From a virus (lineage: Duplodnaviria > Caudoviricetes), in the IMG/VR virus record IMGVR_UViG_3300027715_000011, positions 1-64,000 of that record: DNA of 64,000 nt; one strand, 5' to 3'. The notes beneath the pieces are model-generated. The model ran no database searches. It had not been told where the DNA came from and saw only the letters and a program-made list of their open reading frames with translations. Positions 9,914 to 51,753 of the stretch are shown piece after piece. Numbering within the stretch: the first letter of the stretch is position 1; each line of letters opens with the position of its first letter. A program made the translations under genes and the position numbers.

Positions 9914-10831
9914 ATGCATCGGGTGCCGCTCATACAGAAGATAACGCTGGATCTCACGTCAAACAGATTAAAAATAATAGATCTATCAGAAGCAGCCAAT
10001 AAGGTATATCTTGATCCCGGACAGGCTGCACCTCAGGGTACTGCAGTTCAGACCGGCCCTCATGGAGGAAAGTTCTACATATCTCAGATGATGGGGAAAC
10101 TTGTGCGTGAAGCCGGTGAGTTTAAAAAGAAGTCAGCCGAGGAGATGAAGGATCCAAATCACGGGAAGGAGGTCATCCATGACGACCCATATAATATCCA
10201 GGGATGGGATATCGCTACCGTTGATCCACGACTTGATACTGATATAAGTAAGTCATACCCGTCTGCTATTGTAAAGCGTGCAACCATACAGCGGCTTGAA
10301 CAGATTAAGAGCGTTGAACCTGAAATGACTCAGACTATGCAGGATATAGCACAGGTCTGTAAAGGTACCATGGCAGGACTTGACTTCAGACTCAAATCCC
10401 CGGAGTCTACATTACGTAAAGTATATGAGAAGATCAATGAGTGCCCATACTATGATCCTGAAAATGCTGTAAAGAACCTGAAGGATCTGGTCAGATATAC
10501 CATCCTGTTTGAGCCTGACACCTATACCGATGGGGTGAAAGGTGCTATTGATCTCATGGGGAAGCATGGGTTCGAACCGGTAGCGGTAAAGAACTACTGG
10601 GGATCTCCCGGGTATCATGGGATCAATTGTAACTTCAAGAATAAAGATGGGGTTGTGTTTGAGCTCCAGTTCCATACGCCACAGTCAATAGATATCAAAG
10701 AGGCCAAATCCCATCCATTATATGAGAAGTTACGCACATCGAAAGATCCGAAAGTTATTAATGAGATTAGCAACCAAATATCACAGTTGTGGGAGTCTGT
10801 AACCAAACCATCAGGAGCTGAATCAATATGA
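9914..10831 (+). CDS. RelA/SpoT-like (small alarmone synthetase-type) toxin domain with N-terminal shared motif
   Basis: C-terminal RLKSPES.LRK, DLVRYT, GYHGIN and ELQFHT match the synthetase motifs; N-terminus carries KVYLDPGQAAPQGTAVQTGPHGGKFY. Confidence 0.8.
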   Translation: MHRVPLIQKITLDLTSNRLKIIDLSEAANKVYLDPGQAAPQGTAVQTGPHGGKFYISQMMGKLVREAGEFKKKSAEEMKDPNHGKEVIHDDPYNIQGWDIATVDPRLDTDISKSYPSAIVKRATIQRLEQIKSVEPEMTQTMQDIAQVCKGTMAGLDFRLKSPESTLRKVYEKINECPYYDPENAVKNLKDLVRYTILFEPDTYTDGVKGAIDLMGKHGFEPVAVKNYWGSPGYHGINCNFKNKDGVVFELQFHTPQSIDIKEAKSHPLYEKLRTSKDPKVINEISNQISQLWESVTKPSGAESI

Positions 10832-11085
10832 TCACGTATTACGCAGGATATGAGGAGGGTGCTCCACAGGATATGGAACACCTCATCACGGTTGTCAAGT
10901 TTGATCCTGACGGTGAGTATGCATGTACCAGGTATGACTGGAGGGTAAAGCAGTTTGTATGGGATGAGTTTACACCTAAATATATGATGCATGCTGCTCC
11001 TATGGCTCCTATAGGAGAGGAAGATGTGCAGAATTACATCTCATATATCGATAATCGTGGCGCAGCGGTCCACCCTGAACAGTAA
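10828..11085 (+). CDS. Probable cognate immunity protein
   Basis: 85-aa acidic/aromatic ORF coupled to the toxin stop by an ATGA overlap; C-terminal IGEEDVQNYI. Confidence 0.55.
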   Translation: MITYYAGYEEGAPQDMEHLITVVKFDPDGEYACTRYDWRVKQFVWDEFTPKYMMHAAPMAPIGEEDVQNYISYIDNRGAAVHPEQ

Positions 11086-11117
11086 CCCTCTTTTACTCTC
11101 CTCTCCAAGTAGTATGT

Positions 11118-11849
11118 ATGTGTACAATCAATCTTGGCGGTCTTGTTTCATTATCTACGGTTGACTGGACAGGTTTAGCATCATGCGTTGTCTTCTTCAG
11201 GGGCTGTTCTGCACAATGCTGGTACTGCCATAACAAAGAGATCTGCACCGGTGAAGATATCAGGGATATCCATGAGATTGAGAAGTTTATCAGATCTGCA
11301 TCGTTTATGATATCAGGAGTGGTGTTCTCTGGGGGAGAATGCACCGAGCAGCCAGATGCATTGTACAAACTCTGCCGTGTATCACGATCTATCGGCCTTA
11401 AAACCAGCATCCATACAAACGGATTACAGCCTGATGTTATTCAGTACCTTATCCGTAAGAACCTTATAGACCATATATCCCTTGATATAAAGACTGCACC
11501 ATTACGGTATGAATGGCTTACACAGGTTGTAGATTCAGAAGAGTTGATACGCGAGTCTATGAAGATCTGTTTCAATGCCAGGAATAAGATCGATATCGAG
11601 TGTATCACTACTATGGTTCCTGATATGCAGCAATGGTTATCAAGTATAAGAGCGTGTATTCCTGAAGATGTGAAATGGGTGTTACAACAGTCCCGGGTAG
11701 CAAGTAAGGTGTATCCGGTAGGGATGCTTCTTGAACTTGGTGAACAGTATCATACGTATATTAGATCAGGAGAGACCGGTGAGATCTCCCCTGAACAGAT
11801 CAGCAACCTACCTCACAAAATACCAGGGCTTCCGGTTCTGGAGCAGTAA
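11118..11849 (+). CDS. nrdG: Anaerobic RNR activating radical-SAM enzyme
   Basis: SLSTVDWTG...VVFFRGCSAQCWYCHN (CxxxCxxC), VVFSGGE, IHTNG, SLDIKT. Confidence 0.9.
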   Translation: MCTINLGGLVSLSTVDWTGLASCVVFFRGCSAQCWYCHNKEICTGEDIRDIHEIEKFIRSASFMISGVVFSGGECTEQPDALYKLCRVSRSIGLKTSIHTNGLQPDVIQYLIRKNLIDHISLDIKTAPLRYEWLTQVVDSEELIRESMKICFNARNKIDIECITTMVPDMQQWLSSIRACIPEDVKWVLQQSRVASKVYPVGMLLELGEQYHTYIRSGETGEISPEQISNLPHKIPGLPVLEQ

Positions 11850-12035
11850 AAAGAGCGGTGTTCACAAACAGTACATTCCGGGTATCCTTCAGTTGAGCAG
11901 TGACCCGGTCCAAAACTTCTTGCATGTCGGTGTCATATCCCCGATACCAAACCCTCTGATAGCCCGGTGAGACCAGCCATACCATTACAGTCCAATCCAA
12001 ATATATGGAATCTGAAATACTCTACAGTTATACTC

Positions 12036-13349
12036 GTGAACTACCCCTCCCTGCAACATACTGTTGCGAGAATGGGGCTTCCTGCTTCACGGATCGATGC
12101 ATTCTTGCAAGCAACAATGTCTGACTCAATCTCCACAGGCTCACCGGGCAGATCCTGCCCTGTATTCTGTTTTAGTAACGCAAATCGTTTAATATTGATA
12201 GCAGCATTGATGTCCCGATCATGAACAGATCCACAATCAGGACAAATCCACTCTCGTTCTTTAAGGGTTAATCCTTTGTTGTGGTATCCACATCTACTGC
12301 ATATTTTAGATGATGGATCAAACCTACCGATAGTTAACAAGGTCTTTCCAAACTTCTCACATTTATAAGTGAGCATAGTTCTAAACTCTGACCAAGAGGC
12401 ATCAGCAATATGTTTAGCAAGTTTATGATTCTTCAGCATACCAGATACATTCAGATCTTCAATTGCGATTGCTTGGTTCTCGCTTACTAATTTAAAAGAA
12501 AGTTTGTGCAAGAAGTCTGATCTTTGGTTCGCTATGTCTTCATGACACTTAGCTAATTTACGAATTGCTTTCTTTCGATTATTTGATCCTTTTACTTTTC
12601 TGGATACTGATTGCTGCAGTTTCTTGAGTTTTGCTGAAGTCTTTTTCAGAATTCTTGGGTTTTCAATCTTGGTTCCATCAGATAGAATTGCAAAATGGGT
12701 TAACCCTACATCTATCCCTACAGTAGTATCAAATGTAAATGGTCCTAGTTCAGGAGTTGGTTTTCCATCATCTACCAGAACCGATATAAAATACTTACCA
12801 GTAATAGTTCGTGACACTGTACAGGTTTTAATTTCACCTGCAAAATATCTGTGAAGTTTACACCTTACTTTACCTATCTTTGGAAGTTGAACTGAACCTT
12901 TAATCCAATCTATCTTTACACCTTGAGGGAACTGGAAGGACTGAATAGAATTCTTTTTAGATTTGAACTTTGGAAACCCTTTCTTTTCCTTAAAGAACTT
13001 AGTGAATGCATTATCAAGATTGCGGGAAGCCATTTGCAATGCTTGAGAATGTACTTCTGATAGGAAAGGATACTCAATCTTCAAAGCAGGTAACATCTTG
13101 TTCAAAGCAAAACATGATAATGTTTTGCTGTGCTCTGCGTAATGTTTGATCTTCTTCTCAAGAAACAAGTTGTACACAAACCTACAGCATCCGATGTGTT
13201 TCTCAATACTTTCTTTCTGAACCGTATTGGGATACAACCTATACTTGTAGGCATGTAACATACTAATTAATTATACTTACAGATATTTATAGTTATATGT
13301 AAGCAGCAATCATCTCCTCCCTGTCACCGAGGAAGGGTCTTATTGAGCA
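12036..13349 (-). mobile_element. tnpB-only IS200/IS605-family (IS1341-like) element 1
   Basis: Right end GAAGCCCC...GGGGTAGTTCAC ends at 12036. Left-end hairpin at about 13308-13340, preceded on the minus strand by TTTAT (13354-13350). Confidence 0.85.
12041..13261 (-). CDS. tnpB: TnpB RNA-guided endonuclease
   Basis: AYKYRLYP HTH, VGIDVGL, IAIEDL, Zn ribbon CSRCG/CPDCG, DRDINAAINI; RuvC residues intact. Confidence 0.95.
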   Translation of the reverse strand: MLHAYKYRLYPNTVQKESIEKHIGCCRFVYNLFLEKKIKHYAEHSKTLSCFALNKMLPALKIEYPFLSEVHSQALQMASRNLDNAFTKFFKEKKGFPKFKSKKNSIQSFQFPQGVKIDWIKGSVQLPKIGKVRCKLHRYFAGEIKTCTVSRTITGKYFISVLVDDGKPTPELGPFTFDTTVGIDVGLTHFAILSDGTKIENPRILKKTSAKLKKLQQSVSRKVKGSNNRKKAIRKLAKCHEDIANQRSDFLHKLSFKLVSENQAIAIEDLNVSGMLKNHKLAKHIADASWSEFRTMLTYKCEKFGKTLLTIGRFDPSSKICSRCGYHNKGLTLKEREWICPDCGSVHDRDINAAINIKRFALLKQNTGQDLPGEPVEIESDIVACKNASIREAGSPILATVCCREG

Positions 13350-13385
13350 ATAAACTATAAACCTGTTTATACAAAATAAGTAGAT

Positions 13386-14042
13386 ATGCGAAAATGCTCA
13401 GCCTGCGGAAAGAATATAGGAGAGAAAGGCAAAGGTAATCTCTGCAAAATTCATTATAACCGGCAGAAACAGTATGGAAACCCGTATATTCACTTCATGA
13501 AGCAGCCGAATGGTAATCTTCATGTGCTAGTAGATGACCGGCTACAACCAGGCCAGACTGAACAGACCAGGCAAGGTACTGCATTTGCAAAAGAGGATAT
13601 TGATACTGTTACAGCAGATCAGATACGACAAGGAAAGAGGGTTAAAGTAATGTTTCTCGATCGGTTACCAAAACAGTATGATGTTCATGAAGTACTCTCA
13701 AAGACCAGGTTCGATCTCACCAAGGATGAGGGTGACCGGTTCGGTATGGTAGACTTTGACGGTAACCTAGTGAATATGGCATCTGACCGGTACAAGTGTT
13801 TCTCTCTTCACGGAACCACATGCATGACCTGCGGGCTGAAAGGGCGATACTTCTACCTTGAGAAGACGCAGATAGAAGCCAAACGGTATCACTTCAACCT
13901 GTATGGGGTGAACGATCACGGCGAAGAGATCCTTGTCACCAAAGACCATATCATCCCAAAGTCAAAAGGAGGATCTGATTCTATTGATAACTATCAGACT
14001 ATGTGTAAACCTTGTAACGAGATGAAGGGAAACGATCTATAA
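13386..14042 (+). CDS. HNH endonuclease with N-terminal Zn motif
   Basis: CMTCG...[31 protein letters not shown]. Confidence 0.85.
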
Positions 14043-14134
14043 TCCACGGAGTTGAAGAACCGCGTGTAGCAACTGCAGCACGTGGTTCTATACAAAATAA
14101 TTATCTATATAAGTATTCCTGATAATACTTATAT

Positions 14135-15148
14135 ATGAGAAAGTTAGCATCGGTTCAGAAGATATTATCAGTAGATCCACATCCTAATGCTGATACTCTT
14201 GATATTGCTACCATAGAGGGATGGCATTGTATTGTTAAGAAGGGTGACTTTAATGCCGGGGATCTCTGTATATTCTTTGAAGTAGATTCAGTTCTTCCTG
14301 ATACGAATCCTGTATTTGCATTTCTTGAGAAGTATCATTACCGCATCAGAACTCAGAAGCTCAGAGGATTTATAAGCCAGGGATTATGTATGCCCGTCTC
14401 TCTCATTCCTGATGAACTTGTTGAGGAAGGATCTGATGTCACTGATGTTCTTGGTGTAACCAAGTATGAGCCGCCTATCCATGAGAGTTTACGTGGACTG
14501 GTAAAAGGTAATTTCCCTGCGTTTATGCACAAAACGGATGAGATCCGCGTCCAAAATATTCAAGGCGTTCTCAACCGGTATAAAGGAGAGAACTTTACTA
14601 TATCAGAGAAGCTTGATGGAATGAGCTTCACATGCTACCTCCATGATAACGAGTTTGGTATCTGCTCCCGTAATATGGATCTTAAACCTGATGAGAATAA
14701 TAGTATGTGGAAGACTGCACGATCCTATGACTATGAGAGTATACTCAGGCATTATTACGAGATGCATGGTGTTGAACTTGCATTCCAAGGTGAGATCATT
14801 GGGTATAACATTGCAAAGAACCCGTATAAACTCCCATCCGGAGAACACAGGATCTATCTCTTCAACATCTTTGATATCACCAACCAAAAGTACTGGAGCA
14901 ATGTTGAAGTGCTGAAGTTCTGCCTTGAGAACTGCATCCTCATGGTTCCGATCATTGATATGGAGTTTCAGCTTATTACTGACATCGATGCACTGTCTGA
15001 TATGGCTGACGGGAAGTCTATGATCAACCATGATGTGAGACGTGAAGGCCTGGTGTTCAGACCGATAAAAGAGATGTATGATTATGAGATAGGAAGACTG
15101 TCATTTAAGTCGGTGAGCAAAGAATATCTGCTCAAACACGACTCTTAA
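14135..15148 (+). CDS. ATP-dependent RNA ligase, Rnl2/DRB0094 type with N-terminal tRNA-binding-like OB fold
   Basis: MRKLASVQKI...HPNAD.L, motif I EKLDGMS, FQGEIIG, REGLVFR, FKSVSKEYLL. Confidence 0.9.
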   Translation: MRKLASVQKILSVDPHPNADTLDIATIEGWHCIVKKGDFNAGDLCIFFEVDSVLPDTNPVFAFLEKYHYRIRTQKLRGFISQGLCMPVSLIPDELVEEGSDVTDVLGVTKYEPPIHESLRGLVKGNFPAFMHKTDEIRVQNIQGVLNRYKGENFTISEKLDGMSFTCYLHDNEFGICSRNMDLKPDENNSMWKTARSYDYESILRHYYEMHGVELAFQGEIIGYNIAKNPYKLPSGEHRIYLFNIFDITNQKYWSNVEVLKFCLENCILMVPIIDMEFQLITDIDALSDMADGKSMINHDVRREGLVFRPIKEMYDYEIGRLSFKSVSKEYLLKHDS

Positions 15149-15441: not shown

Positions 15442-15468
15442 AATTATAGTATTGATATGTGAAGATAA

Positions 15469-16860
15469 TTAATCTTCTGTATATCTGAGTTCATCAGAAG
15501 TAGTCTCATCACCACCCTCATCTTCATCTTTGAAATCATCTTCTTTTATATCAGACGGGGCGCCGGGCCATCTCTCATCTATAGCGGTAAACTTCAAGTC
15601 ATTCAATGATATTGGCTCAAAATCAACCTCTTCTGTTTTTGGATCGCAGGTTACGATACTCCCATTGGATCCCATATAGAGAACATATGGCTTGAGATAA
15701 TCAGGAACCCGTGACATGTCATTCCCGGGAGCAGCCTTTAATATATCTTTTATTCTATCAAGAGGGAATCCTTCTTCACTATAAAATAATGCAGCTGAAT
15801 TAGCAGTTTTTGCATTAGGTTTCTTCTTAAATGCTGCATCCATTACAGGTTTGGTTGCTGCGTAGATCTTGTCATTAAACTCCTGATATGTGAGCAGTTT
15901 ACCGGTATCATTGTTTATAACCTCTCCTACATCGGTAAATGATATCGTATCTATAATTGGAGATATTGCTTTACTCAATGCGTTAGATGAATCATTAAAC
16001 ATTCCCTGTATAGTAGCAAATACGGTAATAGGTTTTGTTTTATCAGATGTACTAAGATCACCTATCTCACCCATCTCTTCAGTAATTCCATCAACAATAT
16101 TCTTGTAATGGTTTCTTGGTATTGAGTTTATTCTGTTCTCGATATTGAGATCGTCATTTCCTTTTATATACGTATAGCCTGGTTTTAGTACACTCCGTAT
16201 ATTCTTATATTTTGATATACTCTCTTTATATCTTTCTAATACAGGCATTGCTTTATCATATTTGGGATCATCAACGATATTTTCAATGCATATGTTTATA
16301 TTATTTGTATAATTAGAAACGATCCCCTCAAGTAATTTCATACCTTGCATATCATTGATACCGATCTGCTGCATTAATTGTTCGGTATCATTTGGATTCT
16401 TCTTCAGCTCATCGATGAGGTATTGTGCATGTGCCTGTTTCATTGCATCCTTTTTACTGGCTACATCCATCCAGTCAGGAGCGTCATACCTATTCCAGTG
16501 ATCATACTCATCAAGTTTGTCAATATCATGAGGATCTTTTAATGCTTTTATATGGTCAGGTATCTCGGTTGGTAATGAGGCATGAGTTGCTTTACCGCTA
16601 TATGATTTATCATAATATGGACTGTTATGATCAGGATTCTCTTTAACTTTCTTTAAATATTCTAATCTATCATTGAGGATATCCTGTCTTGTATTTAGAG
16701 TGAGATCAGGTTTACTACTGTATGGGATCTCATAGAACTCCCCTCCATGAGGGCCGGTCTGAACGTTCACGCCTTTTGGCGCTTTATGATACTCATCCAG
16801 ATAGATCTTATGCATAGCAAGATCCAGAACAATCTTCCTCATGACGCGAATATAATCCAT
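15469..16860 (-). CDS. Hypothetical 463-aa protein with N-terminal shared motif
   Basis: VLDLAMHKIYLDEYHKAPKGVNVQTGPHGGEFY at the N-terminus; acidic C-terminal tail. Confidence 0.8.
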   Translation of the reverse strand: MDYIRVMRKIVLDLAMHKIYLDEYHKAPKGVNVQTGPHGGEFYEIPYSSKPDLTLNTRQDILNDRLEYLKKVKENPDHNSPYYDKSYSGKATHASLPTEIPDHIKALKDPHDIDKLDEYDHWNRYDAPDWMDVASKKDAMKQAHAQYLIDELKKNPNDTEQLMQQIGINDMQGMKLLEGIVSNYTNNINICIENIVDDPKYDKAMPVLERYKESISKYKNIRSVLKPGYTYIKGNDDLNIENRINSIPRNHYKNIVDGITEEMGEIGDLSTSDKTKPITVFATIQGMFNDSSNALSKAISPIIDTISFTDVGEVINNDTGKLLTYQEFNDKIYAATKPVMDAAFKKKPNAKTANSAALFYSEEGFPLDRIKDILKAAPGNDMSRVPDYLKPYVLYMGSNGSIVTCDPKTEEVDFEPISLNDLKFTAIDERWPGAPSDIKEDDFKDEDEGGDETTSDELRYTED

Positions 16861-16884
16861 TAGAAAAGAATGGGTGGTGATCCA

Positions 16885-17619
16885 TTAAAATACTGGATCT
16901 GGTGTGATAGGTACAATAGCATTAAAGATAACATCAACCTGGTTTGAGATGGTTGATAACTGGGGAAGATATACTCGCATGTACTTCCGCCTGATCGTAC
17001 CATTGATCTGCACCGGTCTCTTCAGGATATAGGTACCTCTCTTTTCAGCAGGGGTGAGATCATTCCAGTTGATCCCTTTTTGATACAGCATCTCATGGAG
17101 ATCAGGTATCTTCTTGTATGCCAGTTCCTTTGGAGAGTAATGAGCCCGGGCAACCATCTGAATTGAGTTCTTTGCAGCATCAGACTCCCTCCATATGAGT
17201 ACATTAACAGCCTCCATCAGGGTTGGAACCTGGAATGCTCGACAGTCGAACCATCCCAGTTTCTGCCTACCCATATACTGATTGAATTTTGCAGATGCTA
17301 ATCCTGCCAGTGTTGAGACGATCTTGTGTACCTTTCCATCAAAGTAGATCTGCTTCTCATGATCATCAGAGTACAGAATAAGGGTGATCTCATCAGACTG
17401 TGTATACGCCATCACCGCACATGACTCTTCTGCAACGTCCATAGCAGTTCTGATCATGGCATCCATGAACCCTACATCAAATGGCCGGTCAAGTCCCCTG
17501 GTATATGAGTGGAATGACTTCCCATCTATTCGTACGATTACTGGAAGCCGCGGGATGAACTTCTGATCTGTTGTTACTGACTCGTATCGTTTGATCCGAT
17601 CACCGAACGCATCCTTCAT
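16885..17619 (-). CDS. thg1: Thg1-like 3'-5' polymerase (tRNA-His guanylyltransferase family)
   Basis: VIVRIDGKSFHSYT..L.RPFD, AYTQSDEITL, FDCRAF, WRE.DA.KNSI. Confidence 0.95.
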   Translation of the reverse strand: MKDAFGDRIKRYESVTTDQKFIPRLPVIVRIDGKSFHSYTRGLDRPFDVGFMDAMIRTAMDVAEESCAVMAYTQSDEITLILYSDDHEKQIYFDGKVHKIVSTLAGLASAKFNQYMGRQKLGWFDCRAFQVPTLMEAVNVLIWRESDAAKNSIQMVARAHYSPKELAYKKIPDLHEMLYQKGINWNDLTPAEKRGTYILKRPVQINGTIRRKYMRVYLPQLSTISNQVDVIFNAIVPITPDPVF

Positions 17620-17864: not shown

Positions 17865-17875
17865 AATAAATCTTT

Positions 17876-18829: not shown

Positions 18830-18882
18830 ATATAATATTTATCTCCATAATCAATAAATCTTATGGATAATATACACTTATT

Positions 18883-37700: not shown

Positions 37701-39086
37701 ATGATGGATTATCAGTTCTATTCGATGGATCTGTCAGGGTATATTCCTGACCATGTGTCAGATGTGATGCAACGATTTGATCAGCACCAGATCTATATCG
37801 TAGGAGGGGCATCACTCAGTACGTTTGCAACCATCCACAACCTATCTCCATATAATACAACACCGCATGACTGGGATCTGTTCTGTTCAGCAACCCCTGA
37901 TGTCATTATGAAGTACGTACCTGAAGCGGTACCTATCAGAGGCCAGGACCGGATATTTACGGTATCCATCCCTCATACAGATATCGAGATCTCTACATTC
38001 AGACGAGGGGGAGATCGTACCACATTTGGAACTACCATCCTAGAGCACCTTGATACCTGTGACTTTACCATCAATGCAATAGCAATGGATAAGACCGGGT
38101 TTATCATGAAGAAGAATGTAGTGAACGATATCCATACAAAAACCCTGAGGTGTGTAGGGAATGCAGAGGAGAGAATATCAGAGGATCTTAACCGGATAGT
38201 GAGAGCTTTACGATTTGCATCAAAGTACAACATGATAATCCATTATGACCTGTACAAGATACTGAGGTCGTGTTCACTGGTAGGTATTCCTGTAGAGACG
38301 ATAGCAAAAGAGCTGATGAAAGCGGCTCCCCATCCCGCTATCGCAGATCTCCTCATTGATACAGGGCTGATGTTTCGTATATTTCCAAAGATGGAGGATA
38401 TGGTTGCCATGACTGCCGGTAAGAACCATACCGAGTCGTTGATAGATCATACCCTCATGGTGTACAAGGGTGTCTGTAAACTTACAGACAACGCTAATCT
38501 CTGCTTAGCTGCATGGCTTCATGATTACGGCAAGATCGATACCATGGATGAGAACGGCAGAGCATACGGGCATGACAAACTTGGAGCAGACCAGGTGCGT
38601 GATCTGCTTACCGGGTACAAGTTCAGTAAACATGATACAGACTATATCACGACACTGATCAGGTATCACATGTACGGGTATGTGGACACTCTACGAAACG
38701 CCACATGGGCGAAAGCGTTCGATGACATGCTTAAACATAACGTATACCCGTTAGATCTGGTGATGCTTCAGTATGCAGATCATACCGGTAGAATCCTCCC
38801 TGACGGGTCTAAATGTAAGTACACATTCGATGAGTTCAAGAATACCAATGCCTGCTGGCAGGCATGGCTTCACTTCCAGGAGAAAGAGATCCCGGTGAAC
38901 ACCAACTCACTTGCAGTTAATGGAAATGATATCATGGCACTGGGGATACCTGCAGGTCCTAAGATCAAACTGATCCTGAACAAGCTTCATGATATGGTGG
39001 CTGATGGTATCATCGAGAATGATAAGGATGTCATGATAGACATCATCAATACTTTCATTATTCAGCCTGAATTGATAGCAGCGTGA
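37701..39086 (+). CDS. cca: Class II (bacterial-type) CCA-adding/poly(A) nucleotidyltransferase with HD domain
   Basis: YIVGG...DWD (DxD), EISTFR, DFTINAIA, EDLNRIVRALRF, HT...LHDYGK...GH...GA, C-terminal LAVNGNDIMALG. Confidence 0.88.
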   Translation: MMDYQFYSMDLSGYIPDHVSDVMQRFDQHQIYIVGGASLSTFATIHNLSPYNTTPHDWDLFCSATPDVIMKYVPEAVPIRGQDRIFTVSIPHTDIEISTFRRGGDRTTFGTTILEHLDTCDFTINAIAMDKTGFIMKKNVVNDIHTKTLRCVGNAEERISEDLNRIVRALRFASKYNMIIHYDLYKILRSCSLVGIPVETIAKELMKAAPHPAIADLLIDTGLMFRIFPKMEDMVAMTAGKNHTESLIDHTLMVYKGVCKLTDNANLCLAAWLHDYGKIDTMDENGRAYGHDKLGADQVRDLLTGYKFSKHDTDYITTLIRYHMYGYVDTLRNATWAKAFDDMLKHNVYPLDLVMLQYADHTGRILPDGSKCKYTFDEFKNTNACWQAWLHFQEKEIPVNTNSLAVNGNDIMALGIPAGPKIKLILNKLHDMVADGIIENDKDVMIDIINTFIIQPELIAA

Positions 39087-43120: not shown

Positions 43121-43163
43121 CCCTATCTTTTTAAGTTTTATTTACACCTATTATGTAGGTGTT

Positions 43164-44018
43164 TTGTATTTGTACTCTCCAGCAAAAGAATCTATCAGTA
43201 TACACAGGGATCTATGTACCCGTATAAAGAAGTCATCTCATTACAGACAGATACATGAGATGCATGGGCGAATGCAGGAGTATACTCCTCAATATACAGC
43301 AATGATGAATGCATATGCATCTGCCATGAAAGAGTACTTCAGGGATCCGTCAGTATACGATACCAAGATAAAACCCATTCTTGCACAGCTTACCCGGTAT
43401 GACGAGATGGTATCTCCGATGAAAGCCAGGATGCATGAGTATACAAAACACCTGACATCATCTGCATTAGACCGGGTATCAGCAAACCCTATGCATTCAG
43501 ACAAAGGATCATTCACATTTACAGGGGAGAATATAGGTAATGCTCAGTACACCGTGGATCAGATCAAACGTATCATGCATCCTGACATATTTGATAACCT
43601 TGTTGTTACTATACAGGTGAATGATACCGTGCAGCAGTCCAGGGTGCAGCCTTTATCAACTGGATACTTGGTTACGCTTCCATCACAGTATACAACCGGT
43701 GACGTGGCCCATGAGATAGGCCATGTTATAGAGATGTATAAACCTGACATTATGGTACGTGCAAAACAGTTCCAGGCATCGAGAACCAGAGGAGAGAACT
43801 ATCAGTTGTTATCCAAAATCATGCCTGAACATGCATATGACTCTGAATACTGTAGAGCCGGTAACTTCCCTGATCCGTATTGTGGAAAGATCACAAAAGA
43901 CGGGTCTACTGAGGTGTTTGCAATGGGACTTGAGTTTATGGTCATTGATCCGATAACGTTCGCTCATGTTGATCCTGAGTACTTCCAGATGATACTTGAC
44001 TGTATTAGAGGTGTCTGA
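43164..44018 (+). CDS. HExxH zincin-like metallopeptidase-domain protein 1
   Basis: AHEIGHVIE and FPDPYCGK...TEVFAMGLEF...DPEYF. Confidence 0.75.
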   Translation: MYLYSPAKESISIHRDLCTRIKKSSHYRQIHEMHGRMQEYTPQYTAMMNAYASAMKEYFRDPSVYDTKIKPILAQLTRYDEMVSPMKARMHEYTKHLTSSALDRVSANPMHSDKGSFTFTGENIGNAQYTVDQIKRIMHPDIFDNLVVTIQVNDTVQQSRVQPLSTGYLVTLPSQYTTGDVAHEIGHVIEMYKPDIMVRAKQFQASRTRGENYQLLSKIMPEHAYDSEYCRAGNFPDPYCGKITKDGSTEVFAMGLEFMVIDPITFAHVDPEYFQMILDCIRGV

Positions 44019-45652
44019 TGAAGGCATATCCGATAACGGTATGTGGGAATGTTGCGTATACCGATGGTATAACCTGGAAGTCAAAAGATCCTGCACTTGC
44101 AGAGTTCTTGAACCATATCAGGAAGAGTCTTGATATGCCCCGGTTGATGCATACACCTGATAAGGCATACTATGTAGCAGAACGAACGCTCAAACGTCTC
44201 AAGGAGTATGGGTTCTGGGATGCAGAACGGCATAGTTCATTCAATTTGTCGCGTGAATGCACTATAGACTGTGAACATGTATCATATCAGGATGATTATA
44301 CACCGTTTATTGATATACCAACTATCAACCCGGCATATAGCAGACATATCATGCTTGAGTCAGGTATCAAGCCGGTCATGACTGACGTAATATCACCGTA
44401 TCTCCCGGTATCGATGCAGACAGCGTTTACAGCGGTGATCACCGGTGCCATGAATCAGGTCACAACATCAATACAGGAGAGAGATAACAATTCTGATGAT
44501 ATCATCAGTGAACTTGATATATACTTCACGGCAACAAAACCCCTTCCATCAGGTTTGACAATATTCACCCCTCTGATAGCTGATGGATCACCCGGGGATC
44601 AGGTGGATGTTCCTGAGTACATTACTGGATCGCTCAGCTCAAAGGAGATAGACGGAAGGTATTGTGAGATACATGCTGATGGATTCTTAAAAGGGGCATT
44701 CATTGATGATCCACGGTATCTTATTATCCTGAACCGTGGGATGAAGTACAGGATTGACGCTGCTGACTCTATCAAGGTGGTGCTCACACCGGTAGGGGTA
44801 TGTGACACCCCTGATGTAAAGGTGACGTATGCCCCGTCTCCAGAGGCTGAAGAGGTATATAATGCCATTAAAGGGCATGTTATGTCAGAGTCAGACATCA
44901 ATACATCTGCTGATGCATATGCAAAAGAGGTGGACGATCGGCTTGCCAGGTGGCGTATCATGCCTCATACTGATCTTGCATATACCCCTGAACATAAGTC
45001 ATGGTTTACCAGATCAAAAGAGTATGTGAAGAGGATGCGTGAGTTTATCAGACAGGCGCAGCATGAGACGTTGTCAACCGGTACAGTGGGGCATCTTATA
45101 TACCGGCTATCAGGTGACGCTACCCTGGATGATGAGACTGTTCAGTCAATAAACCGTATAACGATATATCCAGTAATTGACTGGTATAAGACTCATCTCC
45201 CGCAGAAACTCCTAGACCGGATACTGGTCACCATCATCTGCCAGGATGAGGACGGAAGATCCGCGATGGTAGGGTATGACGAGTATCAGGAGATATACCT
45301 GAAGTATCAGGCCTATGATGATCCGTCAGTATTAGCTCATGAGATGGGTCATGTCATTGAGATGTGTAACATGGGTGTAAGGCAGGCGGTGCTCAGGTTT
45401 CTTGCATTCAGAGCAGGATCAACCAGGCTTATACGTATGTCTGATGCGTATCCTGACTGGGGATATGGAGAGGACGAGATGGCATACCCTGATCATTTTC
45501 CGAATCCGTACTGTGGAAAGATCTATGATGATATGAGTACAGAACTCATCTCAATGGGAATAGAGTATATGTTTCGTGATCCTGCAACATTTATGGTTAA
45601 AGATCCTGAATACTTTATGTTTATGGTTGATGTGATTAAGGGGAGATACTGA
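44018..45652 (+). CDS. Modular protein: partner domain, degenerate ART-like domain, HExxH zincin
   Basis: TGATG coupling; N-terminal DGITWKSKDPAL; ILNRGMKYRID; AHEMGHVIE...FPNPYCGK.Y...TELISMG. Confidence 0.75.
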   Translation: MKAYPITVCGNVAYTDGITWKSKDPALAEFLNHIRKSLDMPRLMHTPDKAYYVAERTLKRLKEYGFWDAERHSSFNLSRECTIDCEHVSYQDDYTPFIDIPTINPAYSRHIMLESGIKPVMTDVISPYLPVSMQTAFTAVITGAMNQVTTSIQERDNNSDDIISELDIYFTATKPLPSGLTIFTPLIADGSPGDQVDVPEYITGSLSSKEIDGRYCEIHADGFLKGAFIDDPRYLIILNRGMKYRIDAADSIKVVLTPVGVCDTPDVKVTYAPSPEAEEVYNAIKGHVMSESDINTSADAYAKEVDDRLARWRIMPHTDLAYTPEHKSWFTRSKEYVKRMREFIRQAQHETLSTGTVGHLIYRLSGDATLDDETVQSINRITIYPVIDWYKTHLPQKLLDRILVTIICQDEDGRSAMVGYDEYQEIYLKYQAYDDPSVLAHEMGHVIEMCNMGVRQAVLRFLAFRAGSTRLIRMSDAYPDWGYGEDEMAYPDHFPNPYCGKIYDDMSTELISMGIEYMFRDPATFMVKDPEYFMFMVDVIKGRY

Positions 45653-48057
45653 TGAAGATAACGTGCAACGGCGTCCAGGCAGAGATAAAAGGAAGCAGAT
45701 GGACATCTGCAGACAAAGAACTTCAGGAGATCCTCACTGAGTATACCGATATCATCCTGATGTCCACCGATACCATGCTTCATATCCCTGATGTATCCAA
45801 ATATATTACATCATTTATTGTTAATAGGCTTACCGATCAGGGAGTAACCTGTGTCATTACTGATCAGCATCCTGACGAGCCTGAACAGGTTATCATTAGT
45901 AGATCAAATAAATTTGATTTTGATAAGAAATATGTGCGTAGAGGAGAAACTCCTCCAAAATGGGCAAAACTGAAACGAGGGCCAAAAGGAGGACTGCATT
46001 ATGATGACATCGATCGCACTGTATCATTTATAGAAGACAGGAACTTCTCCCCTGTTCCAGAGACCACTCCTCATCCGGTGTATATGACAGATAAAGATGG
46101 AAACATGATATCTGTCACGTATATCATGAGTGTAGTGAAAAACGTTGTCGGGAAAGAGGGTACTCTGTTCACCATGTACTCACTTCCGTCTGATGCGTTT
46201 AATGCTCAGTACGGAAGGGGTGAGAACGATTCAGGTGCGTTCAGAGATGGAACAAATCTTATCCTATCGGATGACACCAGGCTGGGTCCCATTCGTGAAG
46301 AGGTGCGGGTAGCACTCGGCCAGATATATCAGATAGACTCGTTGTTAAAACAGGGCATTCTTGAGTATATCACAAACAGTGTTGCCATTATGCTGAATGT
46401 AACGCCTGGTGAGAATACCGAGCTTATGAGGGATATGCTGGATATCCTTGATATACCTGCTAAAACAGCCATATCGATATTTCTCTCACCATATGTAGAG
46501 CGTGATATAGCAGGCATTCTTACAGACCGGTTCAAACAGTTGTTCAATGATGGGTACCAGATTATATTTGACAACCTGGTCTCTGAGCTTGAGAGCACAG
46601 TCCCTGGTATGGCATGTCGGTTGGATGAGATACTTAAGTCTGTTCAGGAGAGAAAGCCGTTGTCAGTAGCACTGATGGTAACCAAGGTATCAGACGATGA
46701 TCTCAACCAGTTCACTGATGCATACCGGTTCAAGATCACTCATGCAGACTCATGGAAGAGGTTCACCGATCAGATAGCAAAAATAAAAGAAGATCCCTTT
46801 GAGATGAAAGTATTCTTTGAACAGGTACAGTATACCCAGTTTCACATATCACCTGGTATCATCGACAGTATATCAGTTCATCTGATTGATCAGGCATGCA
46901 CCGGGCTCCTGCCTCCTAACACCTATATGGCAGGTGTCCCGTCATATATCACAGATGTATTTGATACGGCAGTCATTGGTGATGTAGTATATCCCTGTAC
47001 CTGGATACATACCCAGTTCTCACCTGCAGCTGAACTTGTCATCTCGTTCAAGGCAGATAACACAAAAGCTGGTATCCTGTATCAGGATGACTGGAGTAAA
47101 GAGTATATTATAGACAGGAATGTAGGGTGGAAGGTTATAGACCGGTATGAGAACGTCATCTTTGTAGAACCGGTGAACCCTGATCCTGTACTTGATCTGT
47201 CAGAGTATCAGAGTGATATCACTATGGATGACTGTAATCGTGCAGTATCAGGGGATCTCGTATCTATTCTTGCGGTTGAAAAAGAGATGAAGTTCCAGAT
47301 CCCTGAAACCACATTGTATATGGTAAATGGTATTAAAGGGTTGGATGTATACAGTTTGAAAGATGGTGATGAGTTTGTGCAGCCTGATATTCAGATATGC
47401 TCACTTGCTCCGCAGAATCTGTCATTATGTATCGTTGAGTTTGTATACGCGGGTACCTGTGCATGTGTGCATGACTGTGTCATTCTTCCACGAAATAGAT
47501 CGTATAAGGTGATCAATTCCCGGGTAAAACATATGGTTGTTGATACGGGCACTCTTGACGTGGTGCAGATGACGTATCTCACGATACTCCCTATTGAGTC
47601 ACCTCTTCCGGTATCATGTAACGGTACGGTTATTATGGAGCAGATCCCGAATGTGATACCTGAGAAGGTAGAGCCTGGTGTCATCCTGTATAAAGGGCTT
47701 GATGGGTTTGGGTATACTGTATTGCAGGATCTTCTGATAGGTGATATCATCACCAGTGATGAGGATCACCTGTTTGTGTATGATTTTGCACTGGCATTAG
47801 ACCAGGCGGTTCCTATTCTTACTATACCGAACGGGAAACGGGTTATATTCAGAGTGGTACTGAAAGATGGTGATCCATTCGTGACCGGAGATAATGCGGT
47901 GATATTCCCGATGAACAGGCCTATGGTAGTAAGGGATATCCATATTGGAACGCTTGAGCAGTTCAACAGTCCTGAATCGGTATACCTGTATGATCTGGAG
48001 TATATCGACTCCCCGGTTGCAACAGATTATGAGTATGTTCAGTATCTGGAGATGTGA
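45652..48057 (+). CDS. 801-aa modular protein: partner domain, shared motif, three degenerate ART-like repeats
   Basis: GSRWTSADKEL; KYVRRGETPPKWAKLKRGPKGGLHY; repeats ending IIDRNVGWKVID, ILPRNRSYKVIN and IFPMNRPMVVRD. Confidence 0.75.
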   Translation: MKITCNGVQAEIKGSRWTSADKELQEILTEYTDIILMSTDTMLHIPDVSKYITSFIVNRLTDQGVTCVITDQHPDEPEQVIISRSNKFDFDKKYVRRGETPPKWAKLKRGPKGGLHYDDIDRTVSFIEDRNFSPVPETTPHPVYMTDKDGNMISVTYIMSVVKNVVGKEGTLFTMYSLPSDAFNAQYGRGENDSGAFRDGTNLILSDDTRLGPIREEVRVALGQIYQIDSLLKQGILEYITNSVAIMLNVTPGENTELMRDMLDILDIPAKTAISIFLSPYVERDIAGILTDRFKQLFNDGYQIIFDNLVSELESTVPGMACRLDEILKSVQERKPLSVALMVTKVSDDDLNQFTDAYRFKITHADSWKRFTDQIAKIKEDPFEMKVFFEQVQYTQFHISPGIIDSISVHLIDQACTGLLPPNTYMAGVPSYITDVFDTAVIGDVVYPCTWIHTQFSPAAELVISFKADNTKAGILYQDDWSKEYIIDRNVGWKVIDRYENVIFVEPVNPDPVLDLSEYQSDITMDDCNRAVSGDLVSILAVEKEMKFQIPETTLYMVNGIKGLDVYSLKDGDEFVQPDIQICSLAPQNLSLCIVEFVYAGTCACVHDCVILPRNRSYKVINSRVKHMVVDTGTLDVVQMTYLTILPIESPLPVSCNGTVIMEQIPNVIPEKVEPGVILYKGLDGFGYTVLQDLLIGDIITSDEDHLFVYDFALALDQAVPILTIPNGKRVIFRVVLKDGDPFVTGDNAVIFPMNRPMVVRDIHIGTLEQFNSPESVYLYDLEYIDSPVATDYEYVQYLEM

Positions 48058-48254
48058 GTATGTATATCATCGAGCATGTGGATCTGTTTACGAAAGAAAA
48101 TTTGATGTATTTAAACAAATGTGCATTAGATCGAACCTTGTCGATCTATAAGGGGAATGTTATTCCCCTAACCAGTGATAACGCTGAAGAATACACAGAG
48201 AATGATACTGATACAGGGGAAGAAACTTCCCCTTACTATATGGGGATGATCTGA
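48054..48254 (+). CDS. Small hypothetical protein
   Basis: 66-aa ORF bridging 48057 and 48255. Confidence 0.45.
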   Translation: MSMYIIEHVDLFTKENLMYLNKCALDRTLSIYKGNVIPLTSDNAEEYTENDTDTGEETSPYYMGMI

Positions 48255-50192
48255 ATGGTAGATCTTCGCAAGGTGTATGTCACCAAGAATCCTAAGCTTG
48301 CACCGAAGGGTGCCAAACTCATCACAACCAAGAGGAATGCGGTCTATTACGATACTGATGATCTTAAAGGCGTAAAGACGAATGATGTAAAACCATCAGT
48401 TACTACACCTGAAAAGAAAGATACCCCTCCAAAGAAGAAACGGTTATACATAAAAGAGGGAAAGAGGTATCATCCATCCTTTGAGGTGAAGAAGACAAAG
48501 ACCGGGAGAGGGTATATCGAGTATGACGGGAAGAAACCTGCTGAATATACCGGTATAGACTCACTTAATGATTTAACCACTCTCCTTGAACAGAAGTCTG
48601 GTGATACTACAGTCATTCAGAAGTATAAGAAGTTGTATTATAATGAAGAATTGTCTGATAAGACAAATAGGCATATATCACGTTATGTTTTAGAGAATAA
48701 ATCGTATAAAGTATTATCAGTCGGTGACGATATATTTGAGTCATTAAAAGGATATAAGGGGGAGGGTGCTATCTCTGATGGTGTAGGAAATACTATAGCT
48801 ATTATATACAAAAATAACATTATTCAACCATATAGGGGATTATTGGCAGTACCTTATATATCTGCACGAAGGTTACGGGAGACACAGAAGCACCCACTTC
48901 CTCAGGATATGATGGAGAGTATCATCTCATCGGTAATGGCAACCGATCATTATGCTCAATTTGGTGATTATGATCCATCATATGATAAGATGATTGATTA
49001 TTATCGATCTATTCTTGGAAAACAGGGTTCCCGGGATGTGGCATTGAAGGCTATCCTGTCACATTATGACATTAATATGAATGACCTGTATGCCAGTCTT
49101 AAGACAGCACCATATGACAACCCTTCAGGATGGTTATTCAATCAGATTAAGAAGGATTACCCGGAAGCGCCAAAAGAATTACTATCATCATTGAAGAAGT
49201 CGTTATCGAGTGAGAACTGTTTTAATGATGAGTTTTTAAAAACAGTATCAAAACTGGCTCATTTTTATGATCCAAAACTTGATTTCGGAAGTGATCATAT
49301 TGCAAATAATGCAGTTCAGATCTGTAATGATGGAATATATCTGAAGTATATGAGTGATGGCGCCCTGAAGTGTAAGAATTTTGGTATACTTGACAATATC
49401 ATCTTTAAACTTGATGATCAGAATATCCATACAAAAAGACAGGATCTCTATAAAGTAGTGAATGAGCATGGAAATACAGTTGTATACCTGCGGAAAGGTG
49501 TGAACGCTCTCTCAAAAGAGTCACAGTTTGATATTATTCATAAGGTTATGGGTGATCTCGTCTACGAAAAGTTGAACAGTATCGGTGCATTACCGTTATC
49601 AGATCTCTTCACTGATGATCCTGAAACCAGGAAGGATTTGTTTGTTCAGACGTTTATAAATCAGAGTAAGGATGCTACTACGTTATCTGATGATGATATT
49701 AAGAGAAGGCATGAACTGAAAGCATTAGTGTATAATAAGATGTATACCGATTCTCCGCTGGTATATTTCAATACCACTCCTGAAGGTATGAAGAACAAGA
49801 GTATGGTAGATGATCTTGCACAACGATACAGTGATGTGAGTAAGAATGCAGAGCATGCCCAGCGGTTAACAATAAAGCTGCGTGAGACTATCGATCCTGT
49901 TGAGAGAGCACGTCTGGAGAGAAATATAGCAGAAGCATTAGGGTTATCTACTGATGAATCATCCCGGGTTGCAGAGTTGAGATCCAAGTCTGAACAGATA
50001 AATCTTAAAGCAACTGCATTACAGGAAGAGTATCTGAAACGGGTGAACGGTTACTGTGAGCAGACCGGTGCCGATCTGGATGATGTGCTTGAACGGCTTC
50101 CATTACTGGATCCTACAGCGGATAAGATATTTAAAGAGTTTAATGAGTTATGTAGGCAGGCTTCAGAGTATAATAATAGGCTCTTGCATTAA
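48255..50192 (+). CDS. 645-aa hypothetical protein with N-terminal shared motif and C-terminal coiled coil
   Basis: MVDLRKVYVTKNPKLAPKGAKLITTKRNAVYY, with a second degenerate copy KRLYIKEGK. Confidence 0.8.
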   Translation: MVDLRKVYVTKNPKLAPKGAKLITTKRNAVYYDTDDLKGVKTNDVKPSVTTPEKKDTPPKKKRLYIKEGKRYHPSFEVKKTKTGRGYIEYDGKKPAEYTGIDSLNDLTTLLEQKSGDTTVIQKYKKLYYNEELSDKTNRHISRYVLENKSYKVLSVGDDIFESLKGYKGEGAISDGVGNTIAIIYKNNIIQPYRGLLAVPYISARRLRETQKHPLPQDMMESIISSVMATDHYAQFGDYDPSYDKMIDYYRSILGKQGSRDVALKAILSHYDINMNDLYASLKTAPYDNPSGWLFNQIKKDYPEAPKELLSSLKKSLSSENCFNDEFLKTVSKLAHFYDPKLDFGSDHIANNAVQICNDGIYLKYMSDGALKCKNFGILDNIIFKLDDQNIHTKRQDLYKVVNEHGNTVVYLRKGVNALSKESQFDIIHKVMGDLVYEKLNSIGALPLSDLFTDDPETRKDLFVQTFINQSKDATTLSDDDIKRRHELKALVYNKMYTDSPLVYFNTTPEGMKNKSMVDDLAQRYSDVSKNAEHAQRLTIKLRETIDPVERARLERNIAEALGLSTDESSRVAELRSKSEQINLKATALQEEYLKRVNGYCEQTGADLDDVLERLPLLDPTADKIFKEFNELCRQASEYNNRLLH

Positions 50193-50230
50193 AGGAGAAG
50201 AACAGCCTGTCTGCTATTGAAACTGAAATA

Positions 50231-50827
50231 ATGGCATTAACGGGGGGGTTAACGTCTGACACTCCATTGATAGTGAAACAGTCAACATATCCTGGATATA
50301 CAGATATCCCTGATAAAACTGCATTTAACAAAACAGTAACGCATGTGAGTGATTGGTTTAGGACTCATGTTTCAGAGTCGTTATGGAATAAGATACGATT
50401 ATCAGCAGGGGTTATCACTAGCGGTAGAGCGCATTGTAACAGTAATACCAGTGATGGGAGTATCATAGGGATATCTAAAGGAGGATTTATAAGCGCATCT
50501 ACGCTCATTCATGAGATTGGTCATGCAATAGAGCATGATAACCCAAAGGTGAAATCAGAAATTAACGAGTTTTATAACCGACGTACTGCCGCATCAGAAC
50601 TATCCAGGTTAAAGGATATACTTCCTTCATCAGGGTATGATAACGATGAATATACAAAAACTGACAGTTTTCCTGATCCCTACTGCGGAAAGGTGTACAG
50701 TGATCATGCCACTGAACTCCTCTCGATGGGGTTGCAGTTTATGTACGAAGACCCAAACTTATTTATGAAAAAAGATCCAGAATACTTCAACCTGATATAT
50801 GATATCATGAAGGGGTGTTACGTATGA
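50231..50827 (+). CDS. HExxH zincin-like metallopeptidase-domain protein 3
   Basis: IHEIGHAIE...GY...E....D.FPDPYCGKVY...TELLSMGLQF. Confidence 0.78.
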   Translation: MALTGGLTSDTPLIVKQSTYPGYTDIPDKTAFNKTVTHVSDWFRTHVSESLWNKIRLSAGVITSGRAHCNSNTSDGSIIGISKGGFISASTLIHEIGHAIEHDNPKVKSEINEFYNRRTAASELSRLKDILPSSGYDNDEYTKTDSFPDPYCGKVYSDHATELLSMGLQFMYEDPNLFMKKDPEYFNLIYDIMKGCYV

Positions 50828-51093
50828 GATTCTGGTTATGGTTCGGGAATCATAAGGTCTATGCAGACTTTGATGGTACTGAATGGACTGCTGAGTTCCC
50901 GGTGTTTACCCTTATACTCAACAGACAGATGCCTGCTATTATAGAGGATATGAAAGGACGATACACTCCTATCCCTGAACTCTTTATCATGAACAGTATC
51001 AATGCAGCATTAGAGCAGTATAGCCTTAAACTTGAGCCTGAAACACCGTTTGTTATCACCGGTGAGATGCCGTGGCTTGAGTCTACAGTATAA
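50824..51093 (+). CDS. Stand-alone partner (immunity-like) protein
   Basis: ATGA overlap; FDGTEWTAEFP.F..ILN resembles the N-termini of 44018 and 45652. Confidence 0.6.
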   Translation: MRFWLWFGNHKVYADFDGTEWTAEFPVFTLILNRQMPAIIEDMKGRYTPIPELFIMNSINAALEQYSLKLEPETPFVITGEMPWLESTV

Positions 51094-51132
51094 CGACCTC
51101 TTTTTATCTTGTAGTATCAGGTAATATGTGAT

Positions 51133-51753
51133 ATGGATTTCAGATCTATACGCCAGAAACTGTTGGTTGATCTTGCACGAATATATGTCACGCATGGTAA
51201 ACCCATCCCGAAAGGGGCAGTGATTCATAAAGGCGCCAGGAACGGTGAGTGGTATGAGTCAACTCGTGGAACTACGCGGATGGATCCTGACTACTTAAAC
51301 CGTACATCGAATAGACATAATGATAAGCAGTATGCCATGGATTCTTATGGTCATGAAGAGGCATTTAATCATGCTCTTTCATGGGCATCAAACGGTGATG
51401 GAAGCGAATATGGATATAAATCACCTCATGAGTTCAAGAAAGGAGTAAAGAAACTGACTGATTTTATATCAATGTATGGATCATATCCTGAGTTTGGTGA
51501 GATGCAACGTGAACTAATGACTGCTATGAGAGATTCTGGATATAATAGTCCGTTTTCAAAATTGTGTAATTACTTCCTTGATCATTATGATAGATTTAAA
51601 AAGGAGAGAATATCACGAAACCCTGATTACAAGACTGGTGTGGGGAATGATACTGATAGATCAGAACATAAACGTAATACATATGGGGAACAGTGGCATT
51701 CTGAAGATCACCGAGTGGATAGGCGACGTAACCCAAAATATAAAGATGAGTAG
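51133..51753 (+). CDS. 206-aa hypothetical protein with N-terminal shared motif
   Basis: LLVDLARIYVTHGKPIPKGAVIHKGARNGEWY. Confidence 0.75.
   Translation: MDFRSIRQKLLVDLARIYVTHGKPIPKGAVIHKGARNGEWYESTRGTTRMDPDYLNRTSNRHNDKQYAMDSYGHEEAFNHALSWASNGDGSEYGYKSPHEFKKGVKKLTDFISMYGSYPEFGEMQRELMTAMRDSGYNSPFSKLCNYFLDHYDRFKKERISRNPDYKTGVGNDTDRSEHKRNTYGEQWHSEDHRVDRRRNPKYKDE

Follow-up and report, generated by a model that had tools for sequence, protein, structure and literature searches.

Why should five otherwise unrelated proteins of one tailed virus carry the same stretch of some thirty amino acids (aa)? This question is raised by a DNA stretch of 64,000 nucleotides (hereafter the window; positions 1 to 64,000 of the IMG/VR record IMGVR_UViG_3300027715_000011, Duplodnaviria; Caudoviricetes), in which five genes encode proteins that share a short conserved element, referred to here as the tag. 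The original prediction, which was made from the letters of the window, regarded the tag as a modular address that directs a set of effectors into the virion. Based on the results described below, we consider it somewhat more probable than the contrary (roughly 55%) that the tag is a position-independent docking or adaptor mini-domain on head-internal polyvalent cargo proteins of tailed viruses, which among isolates have so far been archaeal only.

Copies, spread and predicted fold of the tag

The window is the first 64 kb of a contig of 76,278 bp with 1,622 six-frame open reading frames (ORFs). All five peptides of the original prediction were located, each within a long ORF and in the expected place. 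Hidden Markov models (HMMs) were trained on four copies, and the fifth, withheld copy was tested against all 1,622 ORFs. In each case, the withheld copy ranked directly after its four training copies, and the next ORF had an E-value of at least 0.08. A profile of 19 aligned tags detected the five copies with E <= 1e-13. Since the sixth-best ORF of the whole contig reached only E = 4.6 with this profile, the contig holds exactly five clear copies; no sixth copy was found in the six-frame ORFs of the 76-kb contig. The five copies are:

9977..10087, plus strand: tag copy 1 (leave-one-out E = 1e-8; 19-tag profile E = 7.7e-15)
16723..16827, minus strand: tag copy 2 (leave-one-out E = 4.9e-10; AlphaFold2 (AF2) model with three strands and a predicted local distance difference test (pLDDT) score of 90)
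45913..46011, plus strand: tag copy 3, internal and the weakest (leave-one-out E = 0.016; 19-tag profile E = 9.5e-14)
48255..48353, plus strand: tag copy 4 (leave-one-out E = 2.7e-4; 19-tag profile E = 8.8e-15)
51163..51264, plus strand: tag copy 5 (leave-one-out E = 2.4e-8; 19-tag profile E = 1.9e-14)

They are carried by the following proteins:

9914..10831, plus strand: tagged protein 1, 305 aa; leader, tag at aa 22-58, RelA/SpoT-type small alarmone synthetase domain at aa ~128-305
15469..16860, minus strand: tagged protein 2, 463 aa; leader, tag, then ~420 aa without known fold and an acidic tail
45652..48057, plus strand: tagged protein 3, 801 aa; shared N-domain, tag at aa 88-120, then ~680 aa without family
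48255..50192, plus strand: tagged protein 4, 645 aa; tag at residue 1, degenerate second copy, cargo without family
51133..51753, plus strand: tagged protein 5, 206 aa; leader, tag, cargo without family

A leader with the pattern M..[IL]..K[IL].[LV]DL precedes the tag in three of the proteins (9914, 16860 and 51133), as had been noticed before. The degenerate second tag of protein 4 (aa 63-90, 48441-48524) lies below HMM significance and is kept in the homologue P0009. Recent gene duplication was rejected as the origin of the likeness, because the tags are only 25-54% identical and the remainders of the proteins are unrelated. Chance or low-complexity similarity was likewise rejected on the basis of the leave-one-out E-values and of the number of protein clusters matched by the profile (see below).

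The cargo of protein 1 had been thought to be an alarmone synthetase, and this is supported by matches to SaSAS (PDB 8vx3, E = 1.4e-19) and to Tas1 (E = 0.002). It also matches the C-terminal parts of phrog_7625, annotated as 'head morphogenesis', and of the NCBIfam family XopAD (both 2.8e-26). Cargo of the same kind is also found after a tag in a portal fusion from another source, P0113. For the cargos of tagged proteins 2-5, no family was found in Pfam, PHROG or NCBIfam, and the ART-like repeats that had been proposed were not recovered in any window protein by the Pfam and NCBIfam scans.

A profile search had been suggested as a check. Searching the 19-tag profile against 1.84 billion cluster representatives yielded 788 protein clusters at E <= 1e-3, 101 of them at E <= 1e-10. 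We examined 153 tagged proteins, which contain 280 tags, one to five in each. The first tag starts no more than 70 residues from the N-terminus in 89 of the 153, whereas eight proteins end in a tag; 11 tandem pairs were seen, and the median spacing of tags in multi-domain proteins is 244 aa. The logo calculated from 261 tags reads [LIV]-x-K-x-[RK]-[VI]-Y-[IVL]-x-x-P-x-x-A-P-x-G-[AV]-x-V-Q-x-G-P-[RK]-G-G-x-[YF]-Y-[ED]-[TS] and is followed by a stretch that is rich in E, G, S and P and carries no conservation. Near-invariant residues of the tag are structural ones, namely Y (95%), P (98%), G (96%), GG (94/92%) and Y (97%).

Outside viruses the tag is almost absent from the genomes that were searched: it was present in 2 of 301 and in 0 of 401 archaeal cellular genomes. 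A cellular contig with four tags (G209) had no Pfam annotation. Among 50,697 deposited phage genomes, a tblastn search with two tag queries, whose sensitivity is limited by the short queries, found nothing but haloarchaeal siphoviruses (Druskaviridae: HVTV-1, HVTV-2, HCTV-1, HCTV-5 and HCTV-16).

Modelling of the tag alone with AF2, another suggested check, resulted in a three-stranded beta meander for the ~31-residue tag, with a mean pLDDT of 90 and with strands at residues 6-9, 22-24 and 30-34 of the model. In the AF2 model of P0057, a protein with a natural tandem of tags, a helix is placed just before the first tag and both tags reach a pLDDT of 76-83; this model is of moderate confidence and is not informative on the packing of the two tags against each other. 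The leader of the window proteins may be a helix of this kind. Structural searches were not informative for a model of 35 residues, with a best Foldseek E-value of 2.2 against the PDB (a MutM zinc-finger hairpin) and a best VIA-align Z-score of 3.0. The best score in the ESM Atlas (0.78, a 62-aa Nucleocytoviricota cluster) was below noise level, and PDB sequences gave no match to the tag profile at E <= 10. We found no description of the tag in Pfam, NCBIfam, PDB sequences or the literature searched, nor is the motif mentioned by Liu et al. 2021.

Docking, cleavage or tethering

The proteins to which the tag is joined bear on its role. A word-indexed search with the five tags of the window found a 1,586-aa protein in which five tags separate GNAT domains, a portal-like protein that carries a pair of tags, a protein that joins the tag to MuF, and a fused form of two window genes. 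A Pfam scan of 144 tagged proteins identified Phage_portal, Peptidase_S78 and S78_2, and MuF as head-protein partners. Effector-type enzyme partners were GNAT, ART/DRAT/exoenzyme ART, zeta toxin, RelA_SpoT, SAM lyase, topoisomerase IB, poly(A) polymerase, PI3/4-kinase-like and ParB domains. The tag precedes or separates effector-type enzyme modules, as illustrated by the architectures portal-tag-SAM lyase-tag-RelA/SpoT (P0113), S78-DUF5661-tag-x-tag-x (P0056) and EncFtn-tag...tag-topoisomerase IB (P0030, 1,209 aa).

In viruses with recognisable head genes, tagged genes can lie among them. A 47-kb contig (L002) carries a terminase gene followed by a tagged portal gene, and the gene after next encodes a tagged small protein. 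Three genes of HVTV-1 are tagged, namely 113, 115 (which encodes a zeta toxin) and 116, and gene 114 of HCTV-5 (zeta toxin and ParB nuclease) has one N-terminal and two C-terminal tags; all of these genes are situated between the portal/MuF and the prohead protease/capsid genes. HCTV-5 gene 26 is tagged yet lies outside the head block, as is the case in the window.

Considering that the tag is fused to three head-interior proteins as well as to effector-type cargos, we infer that tagged proteins are incorporated into the head. The tag, a predicted three-stranded meander of ~31 residues that often has a short helix before it and a disordered acidic/Gly/Ser/Pro linker after it, would be attached by the viruses to each module of head-internal polyvalent cargo and would dock to a common partner during head assembly. 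Candidates for this partner are the packaged DNA, an interior head protein, or the tag copies on portal, protease and MuF proteins. Unlinked proteins, such as the five of the window, would then be co-packaged and delivered with the DNA. A more specific proposal is that the tag is a portable signal for capsid loading and co-ejection in archaeal tailed viruses, with the tags on portal, protease and MuF serving as a platform and free tagged proteins riding along via tag-tag or tag-DNA contacts; we put this forward tentatively, as less probable than not.

The linker could have a function of its own as a site of cleavage by the head protease (S78) or by co-encoded zincins, which would be compatible with docking. 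Taken further, tag and linker together might be nothing but a header that marks where the prohead protease or zincins cut polyproteins, with no targeting role. Several features agree with this explanation: tags punctuate multi-domain proteins at the spacing given above, a disordered linker rich in E, G, S and P comes after every tag, the end of the tag (Y-Y-[ED]-[TS]) is conserved, tags are fused directly to Peptidase_S78, and zincins are encoded by three genes in a gene island of the window (see below) as well as in P0009, P0013 and P0016. Zincin processing of polyvalent proteins has been proposed by Iyer, Burroughs, Anand, de Souza and Aravind (2017, PMC5512222). However, C-terminal tags and tandem pairs have nothing downstream that could be released, some tags begin at residue 1, and Y-Y-E is located inside the predicted third strand. 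We favour a docking module over a mere cleavage site because tags are found at the C-terminus and in tandem, and because thirty conserved residues with a confident fold (pLDDT 90) go far beyond what known head-protease sites need. A role in cleavage only thus seems unlikely, although cleavage and docking are not exclusive and may coexist.

A third explanation would dispense with a specific partner altogether, the tag being a neutral spacer or folding unit that is spread by domain shuffling among recombining viral genes. The many unrelated contexts of the tag, the scattered tag genes of the window and the hypothetical nature of the partner would suit such a unit. On the other hand, the sequence is strongly conserved over hundreds of clusters from halophilic and methanogen-associated viruses, and the tag recurs on head proteins, which makes a neutral spacer very improbable.

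The resemblance of the tag to the PBCV basic adaptor domain, PF08789, bears on a fourth explanation. Both are viral mini-domains of ~30-38 aa that are joined to unrelated enzymes, and they share the core hairpin [VI]-x-T-G-P-R-G-G-x-Y-Y (for the tag, as given by the logo of 261 sequences). The earlier statement that no described domain corresponds to the tag is therefore accurate as far as the library models searched are concerned, none of which matches the tag, and needs to be qualified for this GPRGG-YY hairpin. A comparison set for PF08789 was obtained by a pattern scan of IMG/VR for GPRGG.YYI. Most of the sequences found are modules that lie at the C-terminus and read I-x-T-G-P-R-G-G-x-Y-Y-I-N-x-x-G-x-K-x-Y-[IV]; their scores against PF08789 reach 31.6 bits. 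A minority were the tag. In PF08789, a third strand (N-x-x-G-x-K-x-Y-[IV]) follows the hairpin, whereas the tag has K-x-[RK]-x-Y-[IV] and P-x-x-A-P before the hairpin and a linker after it. The K-x-Y-[IV] strand differs in its position, possibly as the result of a permutation or because the repeats are in another register. Additionally, PF08789 modules are basic, whereas the charge of the tag is not conserved. On the sequences compared, the tag is possibly a distant relative of PF08789, the link being a weak one.

Dozens of phage and giant-virus proteins in IMG/VR (L041-L120) end in a PF08789-type module (...K-x-Y-[IV]-K-[RK]-K-stop), which is frequently preceded by a region that is rich in Ser/Thr or contains Cys-x-W-Q-H. 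The domain described as PBCV-specific is thus not restricted to chloroviruses.

The PBCV-1 kinases A278L and A282L, which carry PF08789, are present at ~400-530 copies per virion and co-purify with DNA (PMC3281028). The original prediction had named a generic nucleic-acid-binding domain unrelated to virions as a match that would speak against it; these PF08789 proteins are virion-packaged, and the resemblance is not of that kind. By analogy, their packaging fits the role of a virion-cargo adaptor. It also keeps alive the idea that the tag is a generic nucleic-acid tether, which would serve to place enzymes on the DNA or RNA of an infected cell or on the viral chromosome and would not be a packaging signal as such. 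The likeness to a hairpin whose carriers co-purify with viral DNA, the strongly basic character of window copies 3, 4 and 5, and partners such as topoisomerase IB, ParB nuclease and poly(A)/CCA polymerases are in line with a tether. Yet among 264 tags the net charge varies between -10 and +9 (median 0), and conservation is concentrated on Y, P and G, with K or R conserved at only two positions near the N-terminus. This variation argues against simple electrostatic DNA binding, with the acidity of halophile proteins as a confounder. Furthermore, portal, prohead protease, GNAT, ART and alarmone synthetase partners have no obvious need for DNA tethering. We therefore regard a tether as quite unlikely.

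Several points weigh against the docking reading. The presence of tagged proteins in particles is predicted from sequence, and the docking partner is hypothetical, with candidates only. A recognisable head domain was seen in only ~9% of the scanned tagged proteins. In the window, the five tagged genes lie on both strands outside any head module and have genes for tRNA repair, replication and nucleotide metabolism as neighbours. The addressing role originally proposed is therefore borne out in part: the tag is a portable module that is fused elsewhere to portal, S78 protease, MuF and effector enzymes, but the tagged genes of the window do not adjoin head genes. The ~25 kb of fibre and adhesin genes upstream of the window start, known from an overlapping contig (see below), are without tags, and the stretch covered ends short of the head module. 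Support from PF08789 is also limited. PF08789 (gathering threshold 20.4 bits) did not match any of ten isolated tags at E <= 10, where the speed filters of HMMER could mask very weak matches; it had no match in the 76-kb contig, and in giant-virus records, which were meant as an unbiased set, nothing scored. An hhalign comparison of the tag with the PF08789-type profile gave a probability of 94.5% over 15 columns (the hairpin), which is partly circular because the comparison set had been picked by GPRGG.YYI, so that only the flanking [VI]-x-T columns are independent.

Some tagged proteins contain additional modules. P0030 has an encapsulated-ferritin/rubrerythrin-like domain at aa 534-602, upstream of a tag, and thus a ferritin-type cargo in a tailed-virus protein. 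DUF5661 (PF18905) occurs repeatedly just upstream of the tag (P0053, P0056 and five other tagged proteins) and may be another head-associated module. HCTV-5 gene 114 is the single counterpart of two genes of HVTV-1, 115 and 116. In haloviruses, a C-terminal cassette consists of a WLPLASESPDP...W.EV stretch, a helix, two tags that are 8-9 residues apart and the end EHPRGQ[RY]. This double-tag cassette recurs on unrelated haloviral proteins:

8785-9246 of L033 (HVTV-1): C-terminal cassette
12640-12852 of L034 (HCTV-5): C-terminal cassette
P0057, P0084 and P0103: proteins with the C-terminal cassette

The gene island and its genome

Three of the five tags are located in an island at 43.2-51.8 kb, which also encodes three zincin-like HExxH domains and three copies of a shared N-domain. 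Besides tagged proteins 3, 4 and 5, it comprises:

43260..44018, plus strand: first island gene, untagged zincin-like (HExxH) protein (phrog_33618, 1.5e-14; phrog_19443 'minor head protein', C-terminal part, 9.4e-8)
44018..45652, plus strand: untagged protein with shared N-domain (N-domain alignment) and C-terminal zincin-like domain (phrog_33618, 8.1e-25)
50231..50827, plus strand: zincin-like domain that continues protein 4 after a frameshift (C-terminus of P0009, 46% identity; sister-contig DNA)
50824..51093, plus strand: stand-alone shared N-domain, 89 aa (N-domain alignment)

The shared N-domain is a second recurring module of ~70 aa (M-K..I...G..A...G..W.s.d..L..iL......P) at 44018-44317, 45652-45951 and 50824-51093, without a family assignment. 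It is N-terminal in two large proteins and stands alone in the 89-aa ORF.

Protein 4 and P0009 are 29% identical from end to end, both tag copies included. The ORFs at 48255 and 50231 form one continuous gene in P0009 and in a 178-kb sister contig, a metagenome assembly that overlaps the window (see below). Near 50175, the window differs from this contig by one missing base and one substitution, which split the tag-cargo-zincin gene in two; a genuine variant, an error in assembly and programmed frameshifting are all conceivable. The island is bordered by genes for a thymidylate synthase and a methylase, rather than by head genes. Because of the tags, the zincins, the shared N-domains and the gene that is continuous in the sister contig, the island looks like a polyvalent-protein locus that has partly been broken into separate genes.

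The annotated genes of the 76-kb contig encode a family B DNA polymerase, NrdD, RtcB, a CCA-adding enzyme, a DNA ligase, a helicase and two TnpB proteins, and its 5' end is the C-terminal part of a tail fibre. As judged from reading of the ORF, a probable activase of NrdD is encoded as well. Portal, terminase, capsid and MuF genes were not found among the annotated genes of this contig. The sister contig (178,064 bp, ena:ERZ27245805:k141_1051449) overlaps the window from ~49502 onward at one end and at ~1-5296 at the other, and encodes the identical 206-aa tagged protein and the identical NrdD at its opposite ends. If both assemblies represent the same genome, the molecule would appear to be circular or circularly permuted, with a size of ~222 kb. 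Upstream of the window start, the sister contig shows ~25 kb of giant fibre or adhesin genes (2,527, 1,853, 1,181, 1,113, 763 and 751 aa) with PEGA, PKD, Laminin_G_3, DUF2793 and Band_7 domains.

The two TnpB genes are of the IS200/IS605 type:

12041-13261, minus strand: TnpB gene
32343-33485, plus strand: TnpB gene

The former is 61-66% identical to copies in Methanoculleus, Methanofollis, Methanocalculus and other Methanomicrobiales, which suggests a methanogen as the host of the virus, perhaps one of this order. The best match of the same gene (79%) is in an 11-kb contig that was binned as Saccharibacteria and is perhaps a mis-binned viral contig.

The set of RNA and tRNA repair genes is unusually rich. 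Besides RtcB, it includes a CCA-adding enzyme that has an HD domain, a DNA ligase and a ligase of the T4 Rnl1 type. Judging from reading of the translations only, a Thg1-like protein and another RNA ligase presumably belong to it as well:

14135-15148, 16885-17619, 29267-30451, 37701-39086 and 27492-28379 of the window: RNA/tRNA repair genes
8157-9236 of L004 (the sister contig): RNA/tRNA repair gene

Known cargo systems and implications

Close parallels to a docking tag are signals that bring proteins into the prohead. The capsid targeting sequence of T4 (IPI-III, Alt) and the packaging signal at the N-terminus of P1 DarB (P1 work cited in PMC9024508) are short peptides shared by unrelated proteins. 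These signals are N-terminal, unstructured and ~10-30 aa long, and those of T4 are removed at L/I-x-E. The tag resembles them in being a short shared peptide on unrelated proteins whose genes are scattered. In contrast to them, it is predicted to be a folded domain and is found at the N-terminus, internally, at the C-terminus or in tandem, so that it is not strictly N-terminal as a T4-type sequence is. Sequence similarity between the tag and the T4 and P1 signals was not detected.

MuF-fused polymorphic toxins of temperate phages, reportedly described by Jamet et al. in 2017, are a second parallel. Common to both are the RelA/SpoT-type cargo of the 9914 protein, with its match to the C-terminal part of a 'head morphogenesis' PHROG, and the union of tag and MuF in P0008. 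The difference is that the element common to the five window proteins is the tag and not MuF; PF04233 (Phage_Mu_F) had no match in any window protein at E <= 1.

Like phage-type polyvalent proteins (PMC5512222), tagged relatives contain strings of effectors (GNAT, ART, ParB, SAM lyase, topoisomerase), MuF or portal anchors, and zincins. A multi-domain architecture is present in the relatives P0001, P0113, P0056 and P0030. In the window, only the frameshifted tag-cargo-zincin gene at 48255-50827 is polyvalent, and the other four proteins carry a single cargo. Thus, unlike in polyvalent proteins, the modules of the window are mostly separate genes with one tag each, far from head genes. A position beside portal and terminase genes, which is a feature of polyvalent proteins, was found in L002, HVTV-1 and HCTV-5 and not in the 76-kb contig. 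By word search, no matching motif was found in Iyer et al. 2017 ('linker' and 'glycine' have 0 occurrences each; PMC5512222). Taken together, the tag is best classed as an adaptor of a known general kind, that of virion cargo and polyvalent proteins, which is not described in the libraries and papers searched.

To our knowledge, the choice of cargo for packing and injection is understood in a handful of phages (T4, P1 and those with MuF or portal fusions) and in no archaeal virus. If the role proposed here is true, the tag would be a sequence handle with which candidate injected effectors could be listed in metagenomes. Cargo loading could then be tested directly in HVTV-1 or HCTV-5, and foreign proteins could possibly be loaded into the particles of archaeal viruses. 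Should the more specific capsid-loading proposal hold, these viruses would have a modular and programmable way of loading cargo that is distinct from both the T4 capsid targeting sequence and direct fusion to MuF. Additionally, the tag may extend the 'basic adaptor' of chloroviruses to a wider family of virion-cargo adaptors in viruses of all three domains.

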